Shown here: piece after piece, positions 1,752 to 58,510 of the stretch | Numbering within the stretch: the first letter of the stretch is position 1 | How the letters are laid out: every line of letters starts with the position of its first letter | NCBI GenBank assembly: GCA_040005235.1 | Contig: JBDTZG010000024.1 | Span: 10,021-74,020 of the forward strand | Length of the DNA stretch: 64,000 nt | Direction of reading: 5' to 3' | Source of the DNA: Acidobacteriota bacterium | GTDB taxonomy: Bacteria > Acidobacteriota > Thermoanaerobaculia > Multivoradales > UBA5704 | Made by a program: the position numbers and the translations under genes | The notes under the pieces: generated by a model | Told to the model about the DNA's origin: nothing | Seen by the model: only the letters and a program-made list of their open reading frames with translations | Databases searched by the model: none

Positions 1752-2019
1752 ACCTGACTATCTGAAGGCGATAGAAGAGGTGTTCGAAACCGTTCAGAGG
1801 GCAGATGACGTTCTGGGTGGTCTGGAATTGTTCATTAGCCGTCGCGCCGAAATGGGAATGGCCTGCAAGGGATACCCGCCCGAGTTTTGTACATGGCTGT
1901 CGACCTTGTTACCGAATGATTGTCGTGTCCGAGTGCTCTACACCTACACGACCGAAGAGGCACACCTCCTCGACGCGTGGATGGTCTCAGGATCCGCGGA
2001 CGGGCCCTATTATCGCTAG
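1687..2019 (+). CDS. small ORF (110 aa, GTG start) overlapping the 3' end of the Panacea gene; candidate cognate toxin
   Basis: AGAGGAA RBS 5 nt upstream of the GTG; 65-nt out-of-frame overlap with the Panacea gene; no family recognised. Confidence 0.35.
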   Translation: MPKKPLTDIAHEPQFLRTLVHEPDYLKAIEEVFETVQRADDVLGGLELFISRRAEMGMACKGYPPEFCTWLSTLLPNDCRVRVLYTYTTEEAHLLDAWMVSGSADGPYYR

Positions 2020-2104
2020 GCAGCGGCGCCATGGGTGCCATGCGCCGGATCGCTCGAACCAGGAAGCCCCCCCGCCCCCCCCACCCTGCCTACCATTCCC
2101 CACC

Positions 2105-2506
2105 ATGCGAGCGAGCGATCTGCGGGAGCTGACGGCGGTCATGCGGCGCGCGGCCCAGGCATCCCGGGCGCGCAAGCACGATCTGGAAGCGGCGATGGGC
2201 GTGAGCCACGGCCGGATGGAGGATCTCTGGTCCGGAAACCTGGAGCTGAAGGTGCGCCATCTCGTGGGGTTGGCGGAGCTTCTGGAGGTTCCACCGGCGG
2301 AGATTCTCGCGGCGGGATGTCCCCACGCCCAAGCGGCGGAGCGCCGCCTGTCCGACTGGATCGGCCCGGTCGAGCCGCCATTCGCGGCGCGCCGCGCCGA
2401 ACAGGAGAAGGCCAACGCGGAGGCCGACGACGAGCGCCTACGCCGCGTGGTGCGCGAAGAGATCGCCGCCGCGTTGCCCGCCAGGGCGCGCGGCAAGGCG
2501 AAGTAG
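2105..2506 (+). CDS. XRE-family helix-turn-helix DNA-binding protein
   Basis: An HTH_3-like segment (HDLEAAMGVSHGRMEDLWSGNLELKVRHLVGLAELLEVPPAEIL) followed by a charged C-terminal tail. Confidence 0.6.
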   Translation: MRASDLRELTAVMRRAAQASRARKHDLEAAMGVSHGRMEDLWSGNLELKVRHLVGLAELLEVPPAEILAAGCPHAQAAERRLSDWIGPVEPPFAARRAEQEKANAEADDERLRRVVREEIAAALPARARGKAK

Positions 2507-2548
2507 CTCCCCGCAAGCCCCTACGCGCCGCGGTGAGATCGGACCAAC

Positions 2549-2730
2549 ATCGCGTCCGAATTTTGCGTGATGCGTCCGAATTCTGCGCAGTGCGTCCGAA
2601 GAGTCGACAGCCGGTCCGATTTCTGGGTCGGTGCGCTGAGGATAGCGCTTTTCAGCCGTCGGATTACGGCAATGCGTCCGATTTCGGCGAAATGCGTCCG
2701 ACAACTGCGGCGCGCGTCCGGTAAGTGTAT
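2549..2730. repeat. 20-bp tandem repeat array (about 7-9 units, core TGCGTCCGAW); iteron-like
   Basis: GCGTCCGA cores at 2552, 2572, 2592, 2612 (variant), 2674, 2694 and 2713 (variant), with exact 20-bp phasing. Confidence 0.8.
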
Positions 2731-2810
2731 TTTAAGTCCGAGGAACGGAGAAAGGCAGCGCCGAGGAGCACAATCGGCTCCCCGGCATCGCTGTCCTGTG
2801 CCAGCCGCCC

Positions 2811-5800
2811 CTACTCCCGAGGCGCCGGGATGCTCGGCACTACGACCTTCTTCCGCGGGTTCTTCGCCAGCTCGGCGAGCATGACCTCGATCGCCTTTTC
2901 GAGCGTGGGGTCTTGGCCCTTGGCGACCAGGTCGGGCCGGTCGATGACTTCGATGTCGGGGCTCACCCCTTCGTTTTCAACCGCCCATTTGCCGTCGGTG
3001 TCGAGGAAACGGAACTGGGGGACGAGGACGAATCCGCCGTCCATGAGCGGCGGGTTGCCCGAGAGGCCGATCAGTCCGCCCCAGGTGCGGGTGCCGATCA
3101 GCGGGCCGAGGCCGAGCTTCTTGAAGTAGTAGGGGAAGGCGTCGCCGCCCGAACCGGCGCTCCAGTTGATCAGGCACGCTTTCGGACCCGGATTGACGAA
3201 ATCGGGCGTGGTGCCCGGCTCTTCGCCGCGGCGCACCCAGTAGTTGAGCAGCGGGCGAGAGAGCAGCGCGATCATCGAGTCGGGGATAAAGCCTCCGCCG
3301 TTGTAGCGGTCGTCGACGATCAGCGCCTCTTTATCGACCTGCGGGTAGAAGTGCTTGTACAGCTCGCGATTTCCTTCGACCGCGGTGTTCGGCAGGTGGA
3401 TATAGCCGATCCTGCCGCCTGATGCCTTTTCCACCCGGCGGCGGCTGGCATCCACCCAGACGAGATAGCGGAGATTTTGCTCGCTGGTGATCGTCGAGAT
3501 CTTTTCTCCATGCGCTCCGTCGAGCGTCGGCTTTTTGTTGAGCAGCAGCGTGACGGTCCGGCCGCCTTTGTTCTCGAGCAGGCGGTAGAAGTTGTCGACC
3601 CCCTGGGTCGAGACTCCGTCGACGCTCAGGATCAGCTCGCCCTCTTCGGCGTGGACGCCCGGCTCGGTGAGCGGCGAGCGGAAGTCCTCGTGCCAGTTTT
3701 CACCCGGGAAGATCTGGGCGATGCGGAAATAGCCGGACGGATCGGCGGTGACCTCAGCTCCGATCAGGCCGCCATCCTTCCGCTCGACCGGCGACCAATC
3801 GGGCCGCCGTTCGACGTAGGCGTGACCCGAGCCGATTTCGGCCATGATCTCGTTCAACATCCAGTCGAGGTCGTTGCGGCTCGAAACGTAGGGCAGCAGC
3901 TCGCCGTAGCGCTTGATGATGGCGGGCCAATCGCGGCCGTGAAGGTTCGGGTCGTAGAACCAGTCGCGGACCAACCTTGCGGCATCGCGGTAGATCTGCG
4001 CCCACTCCTCGCGCGGGGAGCTGCGGACCTGCAGATGCGAGAGATCGAGCTTGGCGTCCGGCTTTTGGTCCGACGCGGCGTCGACGATTCCGAAATCGCC
4101 GCTCTGGGCGAACAGGATCTTCTTGCCGTCGGCCGACAGGGTGTAGTCGTTCACCAGGGCCAGGACGCTCTTTTCTCCGCGGGCTTCGAGCGAGTAGCGG
4201 AACAGCTGGGTGGTCCCCGGGTTGATCTGCTTCAAGTAGTAGAGGGCGTCGCTCGACGCCGAGAGCGAGCGGTAGGCGCCCGGATCGCCGGGGATCGCCC
4301 GAACCCGGCCGTCGAAACCGTCGAAATCGACCTGCACCTTGACCGGTTTCCCCGCTTCGGCCGCCTTCGCGGCACCGGTCGGCTCCTCATCGCTCTGCGG
4401 CGGGAACAGCGCGGGCTCGTCCTTGTCCAGGGCGCCGACGTAGACGCGGGTCGGATCGATGTAGAGGTACTGGGTCTCAAAGCCGCTGAAGGTGAGCGTG
4501 AAGTCGCGGTTCGACAGGAAGTAGAGATAGTGACCGCGCGGGTCCCAGACCGGTTCGAAGTCGTTGGCGCCGCTGTCGGTCAGCTGCCGGGCTTTGCCAT
4601 CTTCGAGCGAGTAAACCCAGAGGGAGCTTAGGTGATTCGCGCCGAGCTTCGGGTAGGCGAGGAACCGGCTGTCGGGCGACCAGCGATAGATTTCGAGCGT
4701 GCCGTAGCGGCTTGAATCGGCGTCGCGCACCTTGCCCGTTTCGACGTCGGCGATCCGCAGCCGGGCCTTCTTGTCGCCGAACGCGAGCTTTTTCGAGTCA
4801 GGCGACCAGACCGGCGCGAAGCGCCAGACGTCGCCGTCGGTCGTCACCCGCCGCTCGGGGCCGTTGCCGTCGCCCGGACGGACCCAAATTTCGTACTCGC
4901 CGGTACGGTCAGAGAGATAGGAGACCCACTTGCCGTCCGGCGACCAACTGGCCGACATTTCGCGGATTCCGGGGGTGGCGGTCAGGTTGCGGATCTCGCC
5001 TTTCTCGGCCGGCACGGTGAATAGATCGCCATGCGCGGTGAGCAAGGCGCGCTTGCCCGAAGGGGAAGGCACGGCGGCCTCCACGCTCTTCGATAGATCG
5101 ACGATCGACGGCATCGCCTCGGGGAAATCGCCCGAGACGTGGATCGGCACCTTCGCCGTCTCGCCCCGCTGCGGATCGAACAGCCAGATCCAGCCTCCCG
5201 CCTCGTAGACGACCGCGTCGGGGCCGCCGCTCGGCCATTCCACGTCCCAGTCGCCGTTCGTCACTTTGGCGGTCGCTTTGGAGCGCGTGTCGTAGGAGAA
5301 CAGGTTGAGCGTGTGGTCTTTGTCGGAGGCGTAGAAGATTTGATCGCCGATCCAAACCGGCCACATCTCGTTTTCCGGCGTCTTGGTGATCTGCTCGGCG
5401 CTGTCCTTGGCGAAGTCGTAGATCCAGACATCCGGCGTCCGGCCGCCCCGATGGCGCTTCCAGTTGCGGAACTCGCGGCCGATCGGGGTGTAAGCGAAAC
5501 GCGTTCCATCGGGTGACATCGACCCCGCGCCCCCTTCCGGCATGCGCATCGGCTCTTCCATGCCGCCCGCGGCGGGCACCGTGTAGGGCCGGCCGACCCG
5601 TTCGTCGTAGCCCGTCCGGTTGGCGCGGAAGACGATCTTCTTGCCGTCCGGGGTCCAATCGAGGATCACGTTGTCGTATCCGCCGCGCGCCGGAAGCTCC
5701 CCGATGTCGTTTCGGAACGTCAGCTGCTTGGGCTCGCCGCCGTCGGCCGAGACCACGTAGACCTGGCGGGTGCCGCTGTATTCACCCGAAAATGCCACCC

Positions 5801-6057
5801 ATTTGCCGTCGGGCGAGAGCTTGGGGAACAGCTCCTGGCCGGGGTGCGAGGTCAACCGCCGCGCTTCGCCGCCCGCGCGGGGGACGATCCAAACGTCGCC
5901 GGCATAGACGAAGACGATCCGGTCGCGCGAGACGTCCGGCGTATGGAGCATGCGGGTGCCGCCGTCGAGTTGAGCGAACGCGGAGGGCGGGGCGACGAAG
6001 GCAAACGCGGCGAGCAATGCGAACAGGCCGAGGAGCGGCGACGGGCGTTTCTTCACA
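2811..6057 (-). CDS. tricorn protease homologue (beta-propeller, PDZ and S41 peptidase domains), secreted
   Basis: About 1082 aa from a GTG start (VKKRPSPLLGLFALLAAFAFVAPPSAFA signal peptide). WD40-like propeller repeats, a PDZ region and C-terminal S41 peptidase motifs are present. The longer ORF to 6638 lacks coding character upstream of the signal peptide. Confidence 0.75.
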
Positions 6058-6125
6058 AGGCGTTCCTTTCCGGAGGGGTGACGCGAACCGGCTGATCCTG
6101 TCTTTACGGGGCGGCGGAGCGCAAG

Positions 6126-6731
6126 TTGCCATCCCCAGGTAGGATGGCCCTCATGCAGACCCCTCAGATCGTGCGGCTCCAGGACGTGACCCCCAACCCC
6201 TGGAAGAATGGCGGGGGACAGACCCGCGAGCTTCTGGCTTGGCCTGAGGTCGACCGGTGGCGCTTGCGGGTGAGCGTCGCCGAGATCGGAAGCGACGGGC
6301 CGTTCTCTTCGTTTTCCGGCGTCACCCGCTGGTTTGCCGTGGTGGCCGGGAAAGGCGTGGTGCTCCGGTTCGGTTCCGAGGAGCGTCGGCTCTCGATGGG
6401 CAGCGATCCTCTGCGGTTCGACGGGGCCTGGTCTCCCGGCTGTCAGCTGGTCGACGGGCCGACTCTCGATTTGAACCTGATGATCTGCGACGGACGAGGC
6501 ACTATGACCACGGCGTATTCGGGCAAGCCCTGGGGGGAGAATTTCGCCCAACGCGGCCTGTTCGCCCGAGCGGCCGGTCGCTGGGTCCCCGATCAGGGCG
6601 AGCCGCTGGCGCTTTCGCCGAACACTCTCCTCTGGCAACCTGAGGCGAACCCCGGCCTCTGGCGCTTCGAACCCGACTCGGTCGCCCCCGAAAACACCGC
6701 CGTCGGCTGGTGGCTGGGCTTCACCCCTTAG
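6126..6731 (+). CDS. HutD/Ves family protein
   Basis: A PWKNGGGQTREL motif typical of HutD; about 200 aa. Confidence 0.65.
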   Translation: MPSPGRMALMQTPQIVRLQDVTPNPWKNGGGQTRELLAWPEVDRWRLRVSVAEIGSDGPFSSFSGVTRWFAVVAGKGVVLRFGSEERRLSMGSDPLRFDGAWSPGCQLVDGPTLDLNLMICDGRGTMTTAYSGKPWGENFAQRGLFARAAGRWVPDQGEPLALSPNTLLWQPEANPGLWRFEPDSVAPENTAVGWWLGFTP

Positions 6732-31314: not shown

Positions 31315-31672
31315 TCATGCGCAGTCTATTCGCGCTCCCGGTGGCTTTTCCGAGCACGAGAAGCGCTTCATGAGACGCAAGACCCTCTCTTGCAACGCAG
31401 AAGAGGAGTATGCAGACGCTGGGAAGGGGTGCGGAGACGCTACGCACCGGTCCGTCGAGCACAAGACCCACCGCGGCGAACGCCAGACCTGCCGCGCCGA
31501 GTGCCGGAACCGGTGCGGCGAGCGCAAGAACCGCTGCGCGGCCCCCGGGAACCGCTTCGCGGGATGCCGGAGGCAATGGCTGGTGTGCGCGGAGCGCTCC
31601 GTGGCCTTCGCTACACGGGTCGGTGTGCTCGAAGTCCTCGGTTTTCTGTCTACGCGGCGGTGCGTAGCGTTG

Positions 31673-31798
31673 GGCAGGCGGGTCGGTGCGGTCGGCAGGC
31701 GGGTCGGTGCGGTCGCCAGGCGGGTCGGTGCGTTCGCCAGGCGGGTCGGTGCGGTCGCCAGGCGGGTCGGTGTGGTCGCCAGGCGGGTCGGCGCTTTC
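31673..31798. repeat. 21-bp tandem repeat, about 6 copies (GCCAGGCGGGTCGGTGCGGTC)
   Basis: Near-perfect copies seen directly. They encode heptad peptide repeats in several frames (APTRLAT on minus, GRRVGAV on plus); coding status unclear. Confidence 0.85.
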
Positions 31799-31935
31799 GC
31801 GAGCCGGGTTTTTGCATCCGCGAGGTGCGTCGGTGCGTCGCCTCGCCGGTCGCGGGCGTCCGCGGAGCGATCCGGCGTGCTCGAAGAGCGGTCCGGGGAA
31901 TCGACGGCTCCGTCCTCCATTTCGATCCGGAGGCT

Positions 31936-58179: not shown

Positions 58180-58510
58180 CTGGAGGGCGTGACGATTCTC
58201 CGGCAAGATCTGCTGTCCTTCTGGAAGGATCGCCTCTCTCAAGGGGTCACCGGTTTTAGGCCAATTTCACTGGTCCCTCCCAGGGGATCACTGATTTTCG
58301 GCCAAAATCACCGTTCCTTCCCGAGGGATCGCTCTTCCTTCCCAAGGGATCACTGATTTTGAGCCAAAATCACCGTTCCTTCCCGAGGGAGCACCCTTCC
58401 CTCGGTCGGGATCACTGATTTTCGGCCAAAATCGCTCTTCCCTCCCGCGGGATCGGTGATTTTGGCGCAGGATCGCCATTCCCTCAGGAAGGAACGGTGA
58501 TTTTGGGGGC
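58180..58510. repeat. tandem array of about 5-6 roughly 62-bp units, each with an imperfect palindrome GGGATCACTGATTTTCGGCCAAAATCACCG; degenerate at both ends
   Basis: Three near-identical copies of GGGATCACTGATTTT(C/G)(G/A)GCCAAAATCACCGTTCCTTCCCGAGGG, with degraded copies either side. Confidence 0.8.

Follow-up and report, generated by a model that had tools for sequence, protein, structure and literature searches.

Directly downstream of an XRE-family helix-turn-helix (HTH) gene, in a 64 kb stretch of acidobacterial DNA that was analysed as a whole (the window), lies an array of phased 20-bp direct repeats, and gene and array together form a real protein-DNA module that recurs in many soil Acidobacteria. 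The module is apparently undescribed, and a literature search with partial coverage found no paper on such an HTH-plus-array arrangement. On balance, we read the array as the cognate multi-site operator of the upstream XRE protein, the two parts making up a self-contained unit.

Direct reading of the sequence gave eight units with an intact GTCCG and the core (Y)GCGTCCGA, all on the + strand and divided into two blocks of four 20-bp units each. Block 1 (2549..2630) consists of CGCGTCCGA (2551-2559), TGCGTCCGA (2571-2579), TGCGTCCGA (2591-2599) and CCGGTCCGA (2611-2619), while block 2 (2673..2750) consists of TGCGTCCGA (2673-2681), TGCGTCCGA (2693-2701), CGCGTCCGG, which carries GTCCGG (2713-2721), and TAAGTCCGA (2733-2741). 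The central spacer (2631..2672, + strand) contains two degenerate units at ~2631 and ~2652. An earlier note on this DNA had counted seven clear and about two degenerate copies ending at 2730; the degenerate pair stands, but there are eight clear copies and the array reaches 2741. The exact 20-bp spacing that it described is found within each block but not between them, where the distance is 62 bp, a conserved gap that corresponds to a +2 shift relative to the 20-bp grid. Because 62 - 20 = 42 bp, or four helical turns, helical register is kept across this gap. The note had also placed all sites on the same face of the DNA and here the phasing holds, with distant relatives at 21 bp; however, a 20-bp period under-winds by ~34 degrees per unit compared with 10.5 bp per turn and so the same face is only approximate in the clade of the window. 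A logo of 70 units reads YGCGTCCGA-w-n-w-CYGSR, and each unit contains two conserved boxes ~10 bp apart, which is the separation expected for a dimer in successive major grooves.

This array is real and not due to chance. Each of the four exact TGCGTCCGA copies in the 64 kb lies in the array, and one-mismatch matches outside the array are fewer than expected from shuffles (20 found versus 33). There are 112 occurrences of GTCCG on the + strand of the window (1.75 per kb), and when 190-bp windows were anchored at each of these the maximum count of 8 fell at the array locus, with counts from 4 to 8 each seen once and representing the array's own successive sites, and no remaining anchor exceeding 3. 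Likewise, the array locus has seven in-phase spacings of any 5-mer, while four or more were reached by 0.6% of 626 control segments of 480 bp each. Tandem Repeats Finder called the blocks separately, with periods of 20 and 18. As the note had proposed, the array is also non-coding, since its period cannot be divided by 3, and what sets orthologues apart is the insertion or deletion of whole 20-bp units and a centre of 61/62 bp. A coding heptad repeat (21 bp = 7 codons) was rejected because the clade of the window and L140/L148 use 20 bp, and single units are lost. On inspection, GAAC...CGTC within the units was also rejected as an ECF-sigma promoter, as the spacing is ~9 nt and not 16-17, and a CRISPR array would need repeats of at least 23 bp with unique spacers of similar or greater length, in contrast to the 9-bp core and 11-bp spacers observed here.

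The link between array and gene is seen most directly in relatives. A search of a 5.8-billion-protein database gave seven close homologues of the HTH protein, and all seven are followed by the same array, starting ~45-55 nt past the stop codon, in at least three different gene contexts. In L005-L007 (70% identity) the array is present though both flanking genes differ, with a Na/H exchanger on one side and DUF4440 and Lon on the other. Across four orthologous loci, invariant positions make up 51/64 of the cores versus 64/132 of the spacers (Fisher p = 2.7e-5), and units are gained or lost in exact 20-bp steps, with copy numbers between 6 and 13. Distant homologues (30-50% identity) also have downstream arrays, here of 6-17 units phase-locked at 20-21 bp (L135, L136, L137, L138, L140, L141, L143, L144, L146, L148, L151 and L152), and in L152 a run of 12 sites spans 505 bp and, apart from one slip of 1 bp, stays in register modulo 21. 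By one metric, four or more in-phase spacings were detected in 18 of the 22 assessable loci against 0.6% of the 626 control segments; overall, gene and array are paired in 18-19 of 22 loci, spanning 30-90% protein identity and at least ten gene contexts, and the orientation of the array relative to the HTH gene is always the same. One family member, L139, has no array, and L134 and L149 have only ~3 units each.

The cores are clade-specific and take the forms GCGTCCGA, GTCCTGA, GTCYYG, GGTCCCG/TGTCCCCG, GTCCCCG and AAGCCG. The most divergent recognition helix (LPRGGWDEL) pairs with the most divergent GTCC-type core (GTCCCC/GTCCCG), while L152 has a GTCCGA core despite a different recognition helix, and recognition helix and motif are linked at the level of clades without a clean code. 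L143, for example, has GTCCTGA and L151 has GTCCCCG. Gene contexts vary. Downstream of the array in the window there is a convergent tricorn protease gene, and the gene 3' of the array is also convergent in L001, L005 and L152, while co-directional CHAT operons are found 3' of the array in L135, L141, L146 and L137. In L151 a tandem pair of modules, 770 bp apart, precedes an operon whose products are an APH kinase, a HopA1/LanC-like protein and a protein of 412 aa, and modules in relatives often adjoin toxin-antitoxin or conflict genes. Orphan arrays were also identified (L011, L021, L085 and L087), with no family HTH gene within 8 kb, which means that the HTH protein acts at several loci or that another factor is involved. 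Together, these comparisons show a functional array that is linked to its neighbouring HTH gene.

The HTH gene (2105..2506, + strand) encodes a protein of 133 aa. In an AlphaFold2 model residues 1-75 form a five-helix XRE domain (pLDDT ~90 for residues 1-70). A linker modelled at low confidence comes next, containing a conserved G-C-P motif and W85, and then a long C-terminal helix (92-123) carrying a conserved LRRxxREE motif. Pfam HTH_26 and HTH_31 match the window protein below cut-off, although many family members have precomputed PF13560, PF13443 or PF01381 matches. Using Foldseek, the top PDB matches were XRE regulators, ClgR, restriction-modification C-proteins and DdrO, all of XRE type with a probability of 1.00 and target-normalised TM-scores of 0.6-0.74, and the best PDB sequence match was HigA3 (E = 0.027). 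At E <= 1e-3 there are 113 family representatives, almost all of them 75-215 aa long and the closest 125-155 aa. There are at least 148 clusters, and where organism names are given these are Thermoanaerobaculia and Acidobacteria. An exact-protein look-up found no identical protein on record, and NCBIfam, PADLOC and PHROGs contain no specific family for it.

Upstream of the gene the sole conserved stretch is ACCCTGCCTACCATTCCCCACC (2083..2104, + strand); orthologous loci have ~26 nt 5' of the ATG in common (somewhat fewer in L131) and diverge completely beyond this. It includes a -10-like TACCAT box (2091-2096) 8 nt before the ATG, with TAGAGT and TACGAT as its equivalents in L005 and L130, respectively, and there is no Shine-Dalgarno sequence upstream of the gene. 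The placement of TACCAT suggests a leaderless or near-leaderless mRNA, with the box as a putative promoter element, while a sigma-70 promoter scan gave no match and promoter and terminator scans of L146 and L137 gave nothing useful. In the linker leading from the HTH stop codon to the first unit (2507..2548, + strand), alignment of four orthologous loci revealed a conserved box, GAGATCGG (2535-2542), which in the window only includes TCGGAC, an inverted copy of the core, and two inverted-repeat pairs were found there. Two further boxes, ATAGCGC (2642-2648) and GGAYTACGGCAA (2661-2672), lie in the central spacer and are both kept in L001, L004 and L009, and largely in L131, and the two-block split is also present in L005, L011, L143 and L138. 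Between the array and the tricorn stop codon, folds of both strands predicted a G+C-rich hairpin, GCCGAGGAGC...GCTCCCCGGC (2760..2786), which has a counterpart with changed bases in L004 and L009 and is probably a shared bidirectional terminator of the HTH side and the convergent tricorn protease gene. A terminator scan over 1900-3000 returned no match, and no terminator-like site was seen between the HTH stop codon and the array.

The earlier note had put forward a cooperative repressor array bound by the adjacent HTH protein, and gene-array linkage, conserved cores and clade-matched motifs all argue for this. We consider it very likely, by guilt by association, that the XRE protein binds the array. 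It would be made from a short-leader mRNA and its long C-terminal helix would probably mediate dimerisation or oligomerisation, with one dimer occupying each 20-bp unit, such that one HTH reads the strong 9-bp core YGCGTCCGA and its partner contacts the weaker CYGSR one helical turn downstream. With a recurrence of 20-21 bp, or two helical turns, neighbouring dimers would be aligned along nearly one side of the helix and could contact each other, and this contact could allow cooperative, switch-like coating of the two ~80-bp blocks around the conserved spacer. The resulting nucleoprotein complex, directly 3' of its own gene, would most likely act as a repressor, roadblock or insulator that gates transcription out of or into the gene, and the array may also be a sink that buffers free repressor. 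Relatives are consistent with such a device, in that the same module immediately precedes co-directional operons of CHAT-protease or LanC-like type, or adjoins toxin-antitoxin genes. We hold the gate itself more tentatively, and what counts against it is that it has no obvious gene to control where the downstream gene is convergent, as in the window, L001, L005 and L152. No core is found 5' of the HTH gene and the motif is absent from the gene's own promoter region, so classical autoregulation is not indicated; the array precedes co-directional operons in some relatives and a convergent gene in the window.

The closest parallels in fold are the XRE/Cro-CI repressors (lambda CI, SinR, C-proteins, ClgR and DdrO), among which SinR is a small protein with a C-terminal helical oligomerisation element. 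In these repressors adjacent dimers bind cooperatively, which is also what we propose here on the basis of sequence; however, the known ones use 1-4 sites that overlap the regulated promoter, whereas the present module has 6-17 sites 3' of its own gene, phase-locked over 150-500 bp, and none in its own promoter. BldC of Streptomyces is a small protein that forms head-to-tail oligomers, the count of direct repeats dictating how many protomers bind, but it has a MerR/Xis-like fold and binds 2-4 AT-rich repeats at target promoters, and it is not known to have a long array by its own gene.

A possibility that we rate lower than the operator is that the pair is a widespread chromosomal module of Acidobacteriota (Thermoanaerobaculia and relatives) whose primary job is architectural and not the classical repression of a promoter, with the XRE protein polymerising along the helically phased 150-500-bp track into a discrete nucleoprotein body. 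This body would be a centromere or tether that needs no ParA, or else a polar barrier or an insulator. It could wall off rapidly turning-over toxin-antitoxin and conflict islets (CHAT proteases, PIN, Panacea) from housekeeping neighbours, and array length, which changes in whole-unit steps, could tune the threshold.

The main rival to the operator reading is more specific, namely that the array is a centromere-like or chromosome-organising site, with the XRE protein coating the two blocks in a segrosome-like complex that would position, pair or tether this part of the chromosome with no dedicated ATPase next door, much like StbA/stbS or ParR/parC, and we judge this to be unlikely. It would account for two blocks of phased direct repeats beside a small two-domain HTH gene, and for a self-contained module with changing neighbours. 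Type Ia partition loci have their centromere 3' of the gene that encodes the binding protein (sopC of F, parS of P1), and the array is placed in the same way. ParR/parC (R1, pB171, pSK41) and SopB/sopC (F) are also phased direct-repeat arrays, bound cooperatively into continuous nucleoprotein; R1 parC (5 + 5 repeats) shares the two-block layout, pSK41 parC has 20-bp repeats and sopC is downstream of the gene for its binding protein. However, ParR is a ribbon-helix-helix protein and SopB is of ParB type, and both are plasmid-borne with an adjacent motor gene (parM, sopA) that is absent here. StbA of R388 sets a precedent for segregation without a plasmid-encoded NTPase, acting on stbS, which is formed of two sets of five repeats, and it also represses via smaller repeat sets elsewhere (10.1101/2022.04.29.490116), a pattern that the orphan arrays fit. 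StbA/stbS and the present module have in common a small two-domain HTH protein, two sets of phased direct repeats and no dedicated ATPase, but the repeats of stbS are 9 bp long, recur every 11 bp and are located upstream, in the stbA promoter, in contrast to the recurrence of 20-21 bp and the downstream position seen here. Furthermore, the StbA DNA-binding domain is PadR-like and plasmid-borne, and ours is XRE and chromosomal. No ParA, ParM or TubZ-type gene was found among the called genes and Pfam matches of the annotated loci, and the syntenic chromosomal context is not that of a replicon needing its own partition. Searches of plasmids and viral contigs gave no relatives, the XRE fold is not ParB, ribbon-helix-helix or PadR, and the tandem modules upstream of the L151 operon look regulatory.

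It is still less probable that the array is a selfish or neutral repeat (REP, MITE or minisatellite) that stands beside the HTH gene by chance, or that it is bound by another, genome-wide factor. Several arrays do exist in related genomes, with 2-3 in each of the related MAGs (L006 and L011 belong to one, and L021, L085 and L087 to another). L011 is flanked by imperfect direct repeats of ~40 bp, and L087 and L021 contain perfect 20-bp satellite runs that indicate recent tandem expansion. In addition, arrays with a YTAAGTCCGA core occur in Bhargavaea (Bacillota), where no HTH gene of the family is close by. However, when we scanned genomes for a DNA pattern of three successive GTCCGA-N14 units, most multi-hit loci were perfect 20-bp satellites unrelated in sequence to the window array, and a conserved core with variable spacers was seen only in Thermoanaerobaculia and Bhargavaea. 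Cores that are kept while spacers diverge are the opposite of a neutral satellite, and the pairing of gene and array in 18-19 of 22 loci, with clade-specific cores and at least ten gene contexts, also argues against chance association. In stem-loop tests for REP, BIME or MITE elements the units were at best weak imperfect palindromes, with fold z-scores of -1.6 and -2.4. The earlier note had named a generic REP element as the outcome that would overturn its reading, and in the window there is instead a single array in 64 kb, with the motif otherwise below expectation.

We consider it very unlikely that the array acts as RNA, whether it forms the 3' UTR of the HTH mRNA or an antisense transcript, and functions as a repeat-motif sponge or structured regulatory RNA. 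The gene-to-array interval without a terminator-like site and the hairpin after the array suggest that it is probably transcribed, its orientation relative to the HTH gene is constant, and the minus strand gave a fold z-score of -2.4. However, the plus strand scores only -1.6, the covariation term from RNAalifold comes out positive (+1.08) and so gives no support, and the only Rfam match (Rfam 15) had an E of 0.45, which is not beyond chance. Whole-unit indels would break a long-range fold, and a 20-21 period of two DNA turns, like a modulo-21 register kept over 505 bp with variable skipped units, is a property of duplex DNA and not of RNA. The partner protein also has a DNA-binding fold.

An equally slim prospect is a polar, Ter-like replication-fork barrier, in which the oriented, protein-loaded array would arrest forks from one direction. 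All units share one orientation, and in the window and L001 the genes on either side point towards the module. Terminator-protein genes lie beside their sites in the known cases (tus by TerB, rtp by TerI/II), and here too a small, presumably dimeric DNA-binding protein is encoded beside its sites, while one genome has a second, orphan array. Against this, the fold is unrelated to Tus or RTP, the modules occupy many differing contexts, often by toxin-antitoxin or conflict genes, and L151 has its tandem pair ahead of an operon. As a guide to the origin or terminus, GC skew was rejected as uninformative: L001 has a cumulative-skew minimum close to the module, but the window and the loci cover too little sequence, and the sign of the skew depends on which way the genes run, which confounds it.

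The least likely reading, and one that is already largely refuted, is that of the earlier note's iterons, in which the array would belong to a replication origin or copy-control locus (P1 incA, RK2, pPS10) and the adjacent protein would be its initiator. The array does resemble iterons such as those of P1 incC/incA, RK2 and pPS10 in having direct repeats of ~19-22 bp in helical phase (its 20-bp repeats are within the 17-22 bp type), and P1 has a further array, incA, that follows repA and titrates the Rep protein, which is comparable to an array downstream of its putative binder's gene. However, the 133-aa protein is an XRE HTH and not a winged-helix Rep initiator, with no Rep family match in Pfam or NCBIfam, and the sole TTATCCACA-like DnaA box in the window (1 mismatch) is at 55.7 kb, so that none lies within 50 kb of the array. 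G+C is at least 0.605 in 200-bp windows across the array and hence no AT-rich unwinding element is evident. In place of the episomal context of iteron replicons the locus is chromosomal and syntenic, with relatives on contigs of 0.5-7 Mb, and neither protein nor DNA of the module gave a match in 72,556 plasmids or among viral contigs.

If the operator reading is correct, the module would be a compact device made of a protein and its track, in which a 130-aa XRE protein acts on 6-17 phased sites behind its own gene. To date, most known examples of long cooperative filaments come from plasmid segrosomes (ParR, TubR, StbA and omega), and the XRE family would then extend from promoter switches with few sites to filaments of this kind on chromosomes. 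Likewise, the clade cores (GTCCGA, GTCCTGA, GTCCCCG and AAGCCG) and their diverged recognition helices would represent orthogonal protein-DNA pairs, which would suit studies of recognition codes and cooperativity and might be adapted as titration arrays or synthetic insulators. Members of the family occur only in soil Acidobacteria, a poorly studied group in which, to our knowledge, almost no regulatory DNA has been characterised, and the position of the module beside CHAT-protease operons and toxin-antitoxin islets hints at a role in the control of conflict systems.

The HTH gene at 2105-2506 encodes a 133-aa protein, and structure prediction modelled residues 1-75 confidently as a five-helix XRE HTH domain, which is followed by a long helix at residues 92-123. 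In structure it most resembles XRE regulators, ClgR, restriction-modification C-proteins and DdrO; matches to Pfam HTH_26 and HTH_31 were both below cut-off, and HigA3 was the sole PDB sequence match (E = 0.027). Direct reading of the window sequence showed that the downstream array is composed of two blocks of four 20-bp units. Block 1 carries the cores CGCGTCCGA (2551-2559), TGCGTCCGA (2571-2579 and 2591-2599) and CCGGTCCGA (2611-2619), block 2 carries TGCGTCCGA (2673-2681 and 2693-2701), CGCGTCCGG (2713-2721) and TAAGTCCGA (2733-2741), and two degenerate units lie inside the 62-bp stretch between them. There are therefore eight intact GTCCG cores rather than the seven clear copies (plus about two degenerate ones) of the earlier note, which ended the array at 2730, short of the last core. 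The exact 20-bp spacing that it described holds inside each block but not between blocks, where there is an offset of +2 bp, and helical register is nevertheless kept because 62 - 20 = 42 bp, or four helical turns.

The array stands far beyond chance expectation. Exact TGCGTCCGA occurs four times in the array and not at all in the rest of the 64 kb, with one-mismatch matches outside the array fewer than chance (20 observed versus 33 expected from shuffles). Counting GTCCG in 190-bp windows anchored at each + strand GTCCG across the 64 kb gave a value of 8 for the array; counts of 4-8 were seen once each, as expected from its successive sites, and the remaining anchors gave ≤3, with a background density of 1.75 per kb. 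Likewise, in-phase spacings of any 5-mer numbered seven at the window locus, and values of ≥4 were found in 0.6% of 626 control segments. Since its period is not divisible by three and entire units are inserted or deleted between orthologues, the array is non-coding, in agreement with the first reading. A generic REP element, the alternative which that reading had singled out, was rejected given the single array copy in 64 kb. Other repeats were also observed in the window. At 58242-58485 a separate family has approximately three units of 62 bp (41 bp under an alternative scoring), each containing the palindrome GGGATCACTGATTTTCGGCCAAAATCACCG with TTCCCTCCC flanks, and resembles a REP element or MITE. 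At 31456-31842 there are G+C-rich tandem repeats with unit lengths of 21 bp and 63 bp (≤6.5 copies, 91% match), which possibly encode a heptad or 21-residue repeat.

Only seven close relatives of the HTH protein were found among 5.8 billion proteins, and in every sufficiently long contig the array begins ~45-55 nt past the HTH stop codon. It is present in five syntenic loci (82-91% identity), in L133 (91%), which has another + strand gene on the downstream side, and in L005-L007 (70%), where both flanking genes are different (a Na/H exchanger on one side, DUF4440 plus Lon on the other). Between 6 and 13 copies of the unit are present. When four orthologous loci were aligned, 51/64 core positions proved invariant versus 64/132 in spacers (Fisher p = 2.7e-5), and units have been gained or lost between the window and the other aligned loci, in both directions and always in exact 20-bp quanta. 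A logo of 70 units reads YGCGTCCGA, three variable positions and, approximately one helical turn downstream, a weaker CYGSR box, which in some units completes the palindrome GTCCG-N5-CGGAC. These comparisons indicate that array and HTH gene travel together, with selection acting on the array.

Among 1.84 billion representatives, a profile search identified 113 members of the HTH family, nearly all of 75-215 aa and the closest of 125-155 aa, and a second search gave at least 148 clusters, in which the named organisms were Thermoanaerobaculia or Acidobacteria. A distant set, comprising 14 metagenomic loci and four loci on contigs of 0.5-7 Mb (L148, L149, L151 and L152), encodes proteins 30-50% identical to that of the window, and here too a downstream array is the rule. 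With a 21-bp period we found TGTCCTGA in L143 (14 units), GTCCTG/GTCYYG in L135, L138, L141, L144 and L146 (9-12 units), AGTCC-N4-TTGA in L137 (~10 units) and CGGTCCGA in L152 (12 units), where register modulo 21 is held across 505 bp with one 1-bp slip. The period is 20 bp for GTCCTGA in L140 and GGTCCCG in L148 (eight units), 20-21 bp for TGTCCCCG in L151 (15 units), and 20-22 bp for AAGCCG in L136 (seven units). Using a uniform metric, at least four in-phase spacings were present in 18 of the 22 assessable loci, with L137 visibly a 19th; L134 and L149 have approximately three units each, and in the same survey no array was found in L139. The presumed recognition helix varies in sequence between motif classes, and the most divergent, LPRGGWDEL, pairs with the most divergent GTCC-type core, GTCCCC/GTCCCG; this correspondence is at clade level only, with no clean code.

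Arrays also occur alone. An orphan array in L011 (4500-4972; Thermoanaerobaculia MAG SMAG_U11135, which also contains L006) is 81% identical to that of L005 and includes roughly 25-70 nt from the 3' end of the HTH gene, which is otherwise absent. The genes on either side of this array diverge from each other, and imperfect direct repeats of ~40 bp (4500-4545 and 4928-4972) bracket the array, which suggests that it was inserted or duplicated as a unit. A second MAG, SMAG_U5208 (Thermoanaerobaculia), contains three arrays of ~0.4-0.5 kb (L021 2589-3105, L085 7559-7986 and L087 1602-2140) with GCGTCCGR cores in 21-bp small-palindrome units (GTCCG-N5/6-CGGAC), and no family HTH gene was found within 8 kb of any of them. 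The L087 array is flanked by a PIN-toxin gene and a BlaI-type repressor gene, and both it and the L021 array run into perfect 20-bp satellites (CTGTCCGAACTTCSGGCGSC, ~10 copies). As judged from these sequences, arrays grow via tandem duplication. Because orphan arrays exist, the HTH protein, if it binds them, would have several genomic targets. Other genome matches to the search pattern were mostly plain perfect satellites with no relation to the window array. In Bhargavaea (Bacillota) we observed at least two arrays per genome (L094 3789-3892, L112 5990-6114 and L120 6059-6193), with 6-8 units in exact 20-bp phase, a conserved YTAAGTCCGA core and variable spacers. These are intergenic among housekeeping genes (one example is the gap separating truA from an ECF transporter gene), and no family HTH gene was found nearby. 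They are a possible independent phased-array system of Firmicutes, and their core recurs in the last unit of the window array (TAAGTCCGA).

Upstream of the HTH ATG only ~26 nt are conserved among orthologous loci; this segment contains a TACCAT box eight nt 5' of the start codon, and the core motif was not found in it. Two C runs at 2066-2086 (GCCCCCCC GCCCCCCCC), directly upstream of the TACCAT box and unconserved in orthologous loci, could be slippage-prone and affect the HTH promoter. Between a conserved 227-aa gene (ending at 634) and the HTH gene lies a 1.4-kb insert (~635-2064) with a G+C content of 0.50-0.57 versus ~0.65, carrying an ORF that resembles a SocA/Panacea antitoxin (1161-1751; Pfam E = 4e-7) and an overlapping 110-aa ORF (1687-2019) with no family match. 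The insert is missing from the orthologous loci L009 and L004, and in L001 other small genes occupy its position, including an Unstab_antitox gene. The site has the appearance of a hot spot for toxin-antitoxin-type cargo. Downstream of the array there is a G+C-rich hairpin (2760-2786) and then a convergent tricorn-type protease gene. The longest version of this ORF (2811-6638, - strand) is 1275 aa and orthologues are called at 1079-1082 aa; its true start is probably ~200 codons downstream of the first TTG.

The most economical model is that the array serves the adjacent XRE protein as its cognate multi-site operator. The data directly show the array, its conservation, its linkage to the gene, its phasing and the motif classes. 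From these we infer that the protein binds the array cooperatively, with a stoichiometry of one dimer per 20-bp unit, each contacting a strong half-site and the weak box one turn away. Adjacent dimers would sit two turns apart on nearly the same DNA face, and a filament could assemble over the two blocks, with the conserved spacer between them. Placed directly behind the regulator gene, it may act as a gate (repressor, roadblock or insulator) and a titration sink. The chief competing reading gives the array an architectural, centromere-like role similar to that of StbA/stbS. That system of plasmid R388 has a small HTH protein, two repeat sets and no NTPase, with smaller sets elsewhere that repress (10.1101/2022.04.29.490116), and the module resembles it in its small HTH protein, two repeat sets and lack of an adjacent NTPase gene. 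StbA/stbS, ParR/parC, SopB/sopC, Rep/iterons and SinR or CI-type repressors are the closest known systems. On tested defining features (initiator or motor gene, replicon type, fold) the module does not belong to the iteron or partition families. The iteron reading of the earlier note was abandoned: there is no Rep-type protein, DnaA box or AT-rich element, synteny is chromosomal, and no plasmid or viral relatives of the module were found. An RNA function is less likely; no known or evident structured RNA is present (no Rfam match, fold z-scores of -1.6 and -2.4, positive RNAalifold covariation term), and a 20-21 bp period maintained across variable skipped units is a property of duplex DNA. 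A polar fork barrier and a selfish repeat are also less likely than the operator model.

Neither kind of component is new: XRE HTH proteins are known, and so is cooperative binding to phased direct repeats. The HTH protein had no match in NCBIfam or PADLOC, and Pfam and PHROGs returned only generic HTH domains and generic regulator families, respectively. In full-text literature of partial coverage, where absence is not proof, we found no description of this conserved arrangement, in which Acidobacteriota chromosomes encode an XRE protein of 125-150 aa and carry, immediately 3' of its own gene, 6-17 sites with clade-specific cores that are phase-locked at 20-21 bp.

The gate and titration role is proposed tentatively, since a downstream target is missing at half of the loci. 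It is favoured by the lack of any terminator-like site in a scan from the HTH stop codon to the array, by co-directional conflict-gene operons after the array in several clades, and by two stacked modules preceding one operon in L151. The post-array gene is co-directional in several relatives and convergent in the window, L001, L005 and L152. Many loci, namely the window, L001, L148, L152 and the CHAT loci, have toxin-antitoxin or conflict genes no more than ~2 kb away. In L148 a small-gene and toxin-antitoxin cluster follows co-directionally. L151 (6001-7530) has two paralogous HTH genes in tandem, the first (P0214) with the 15-unit TGTCCCCG array behind it and the second (P0176) with only approximately three GTCCCTT sites, followed co-directionally by genes for a 412-aa protein, an APH kinase and a HopA1/LanC-like protein. 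In L135, L141, L146 and L137, genes for CHAT-domain (caspase-like) proteases follow the HTH-array module co-directionally, either as CHAT with a TPR protein and an unknown protein or as a CHAT-FGE-sulfatase fusion, which hints that in these clades the module controls conflict or cell-death effectors.
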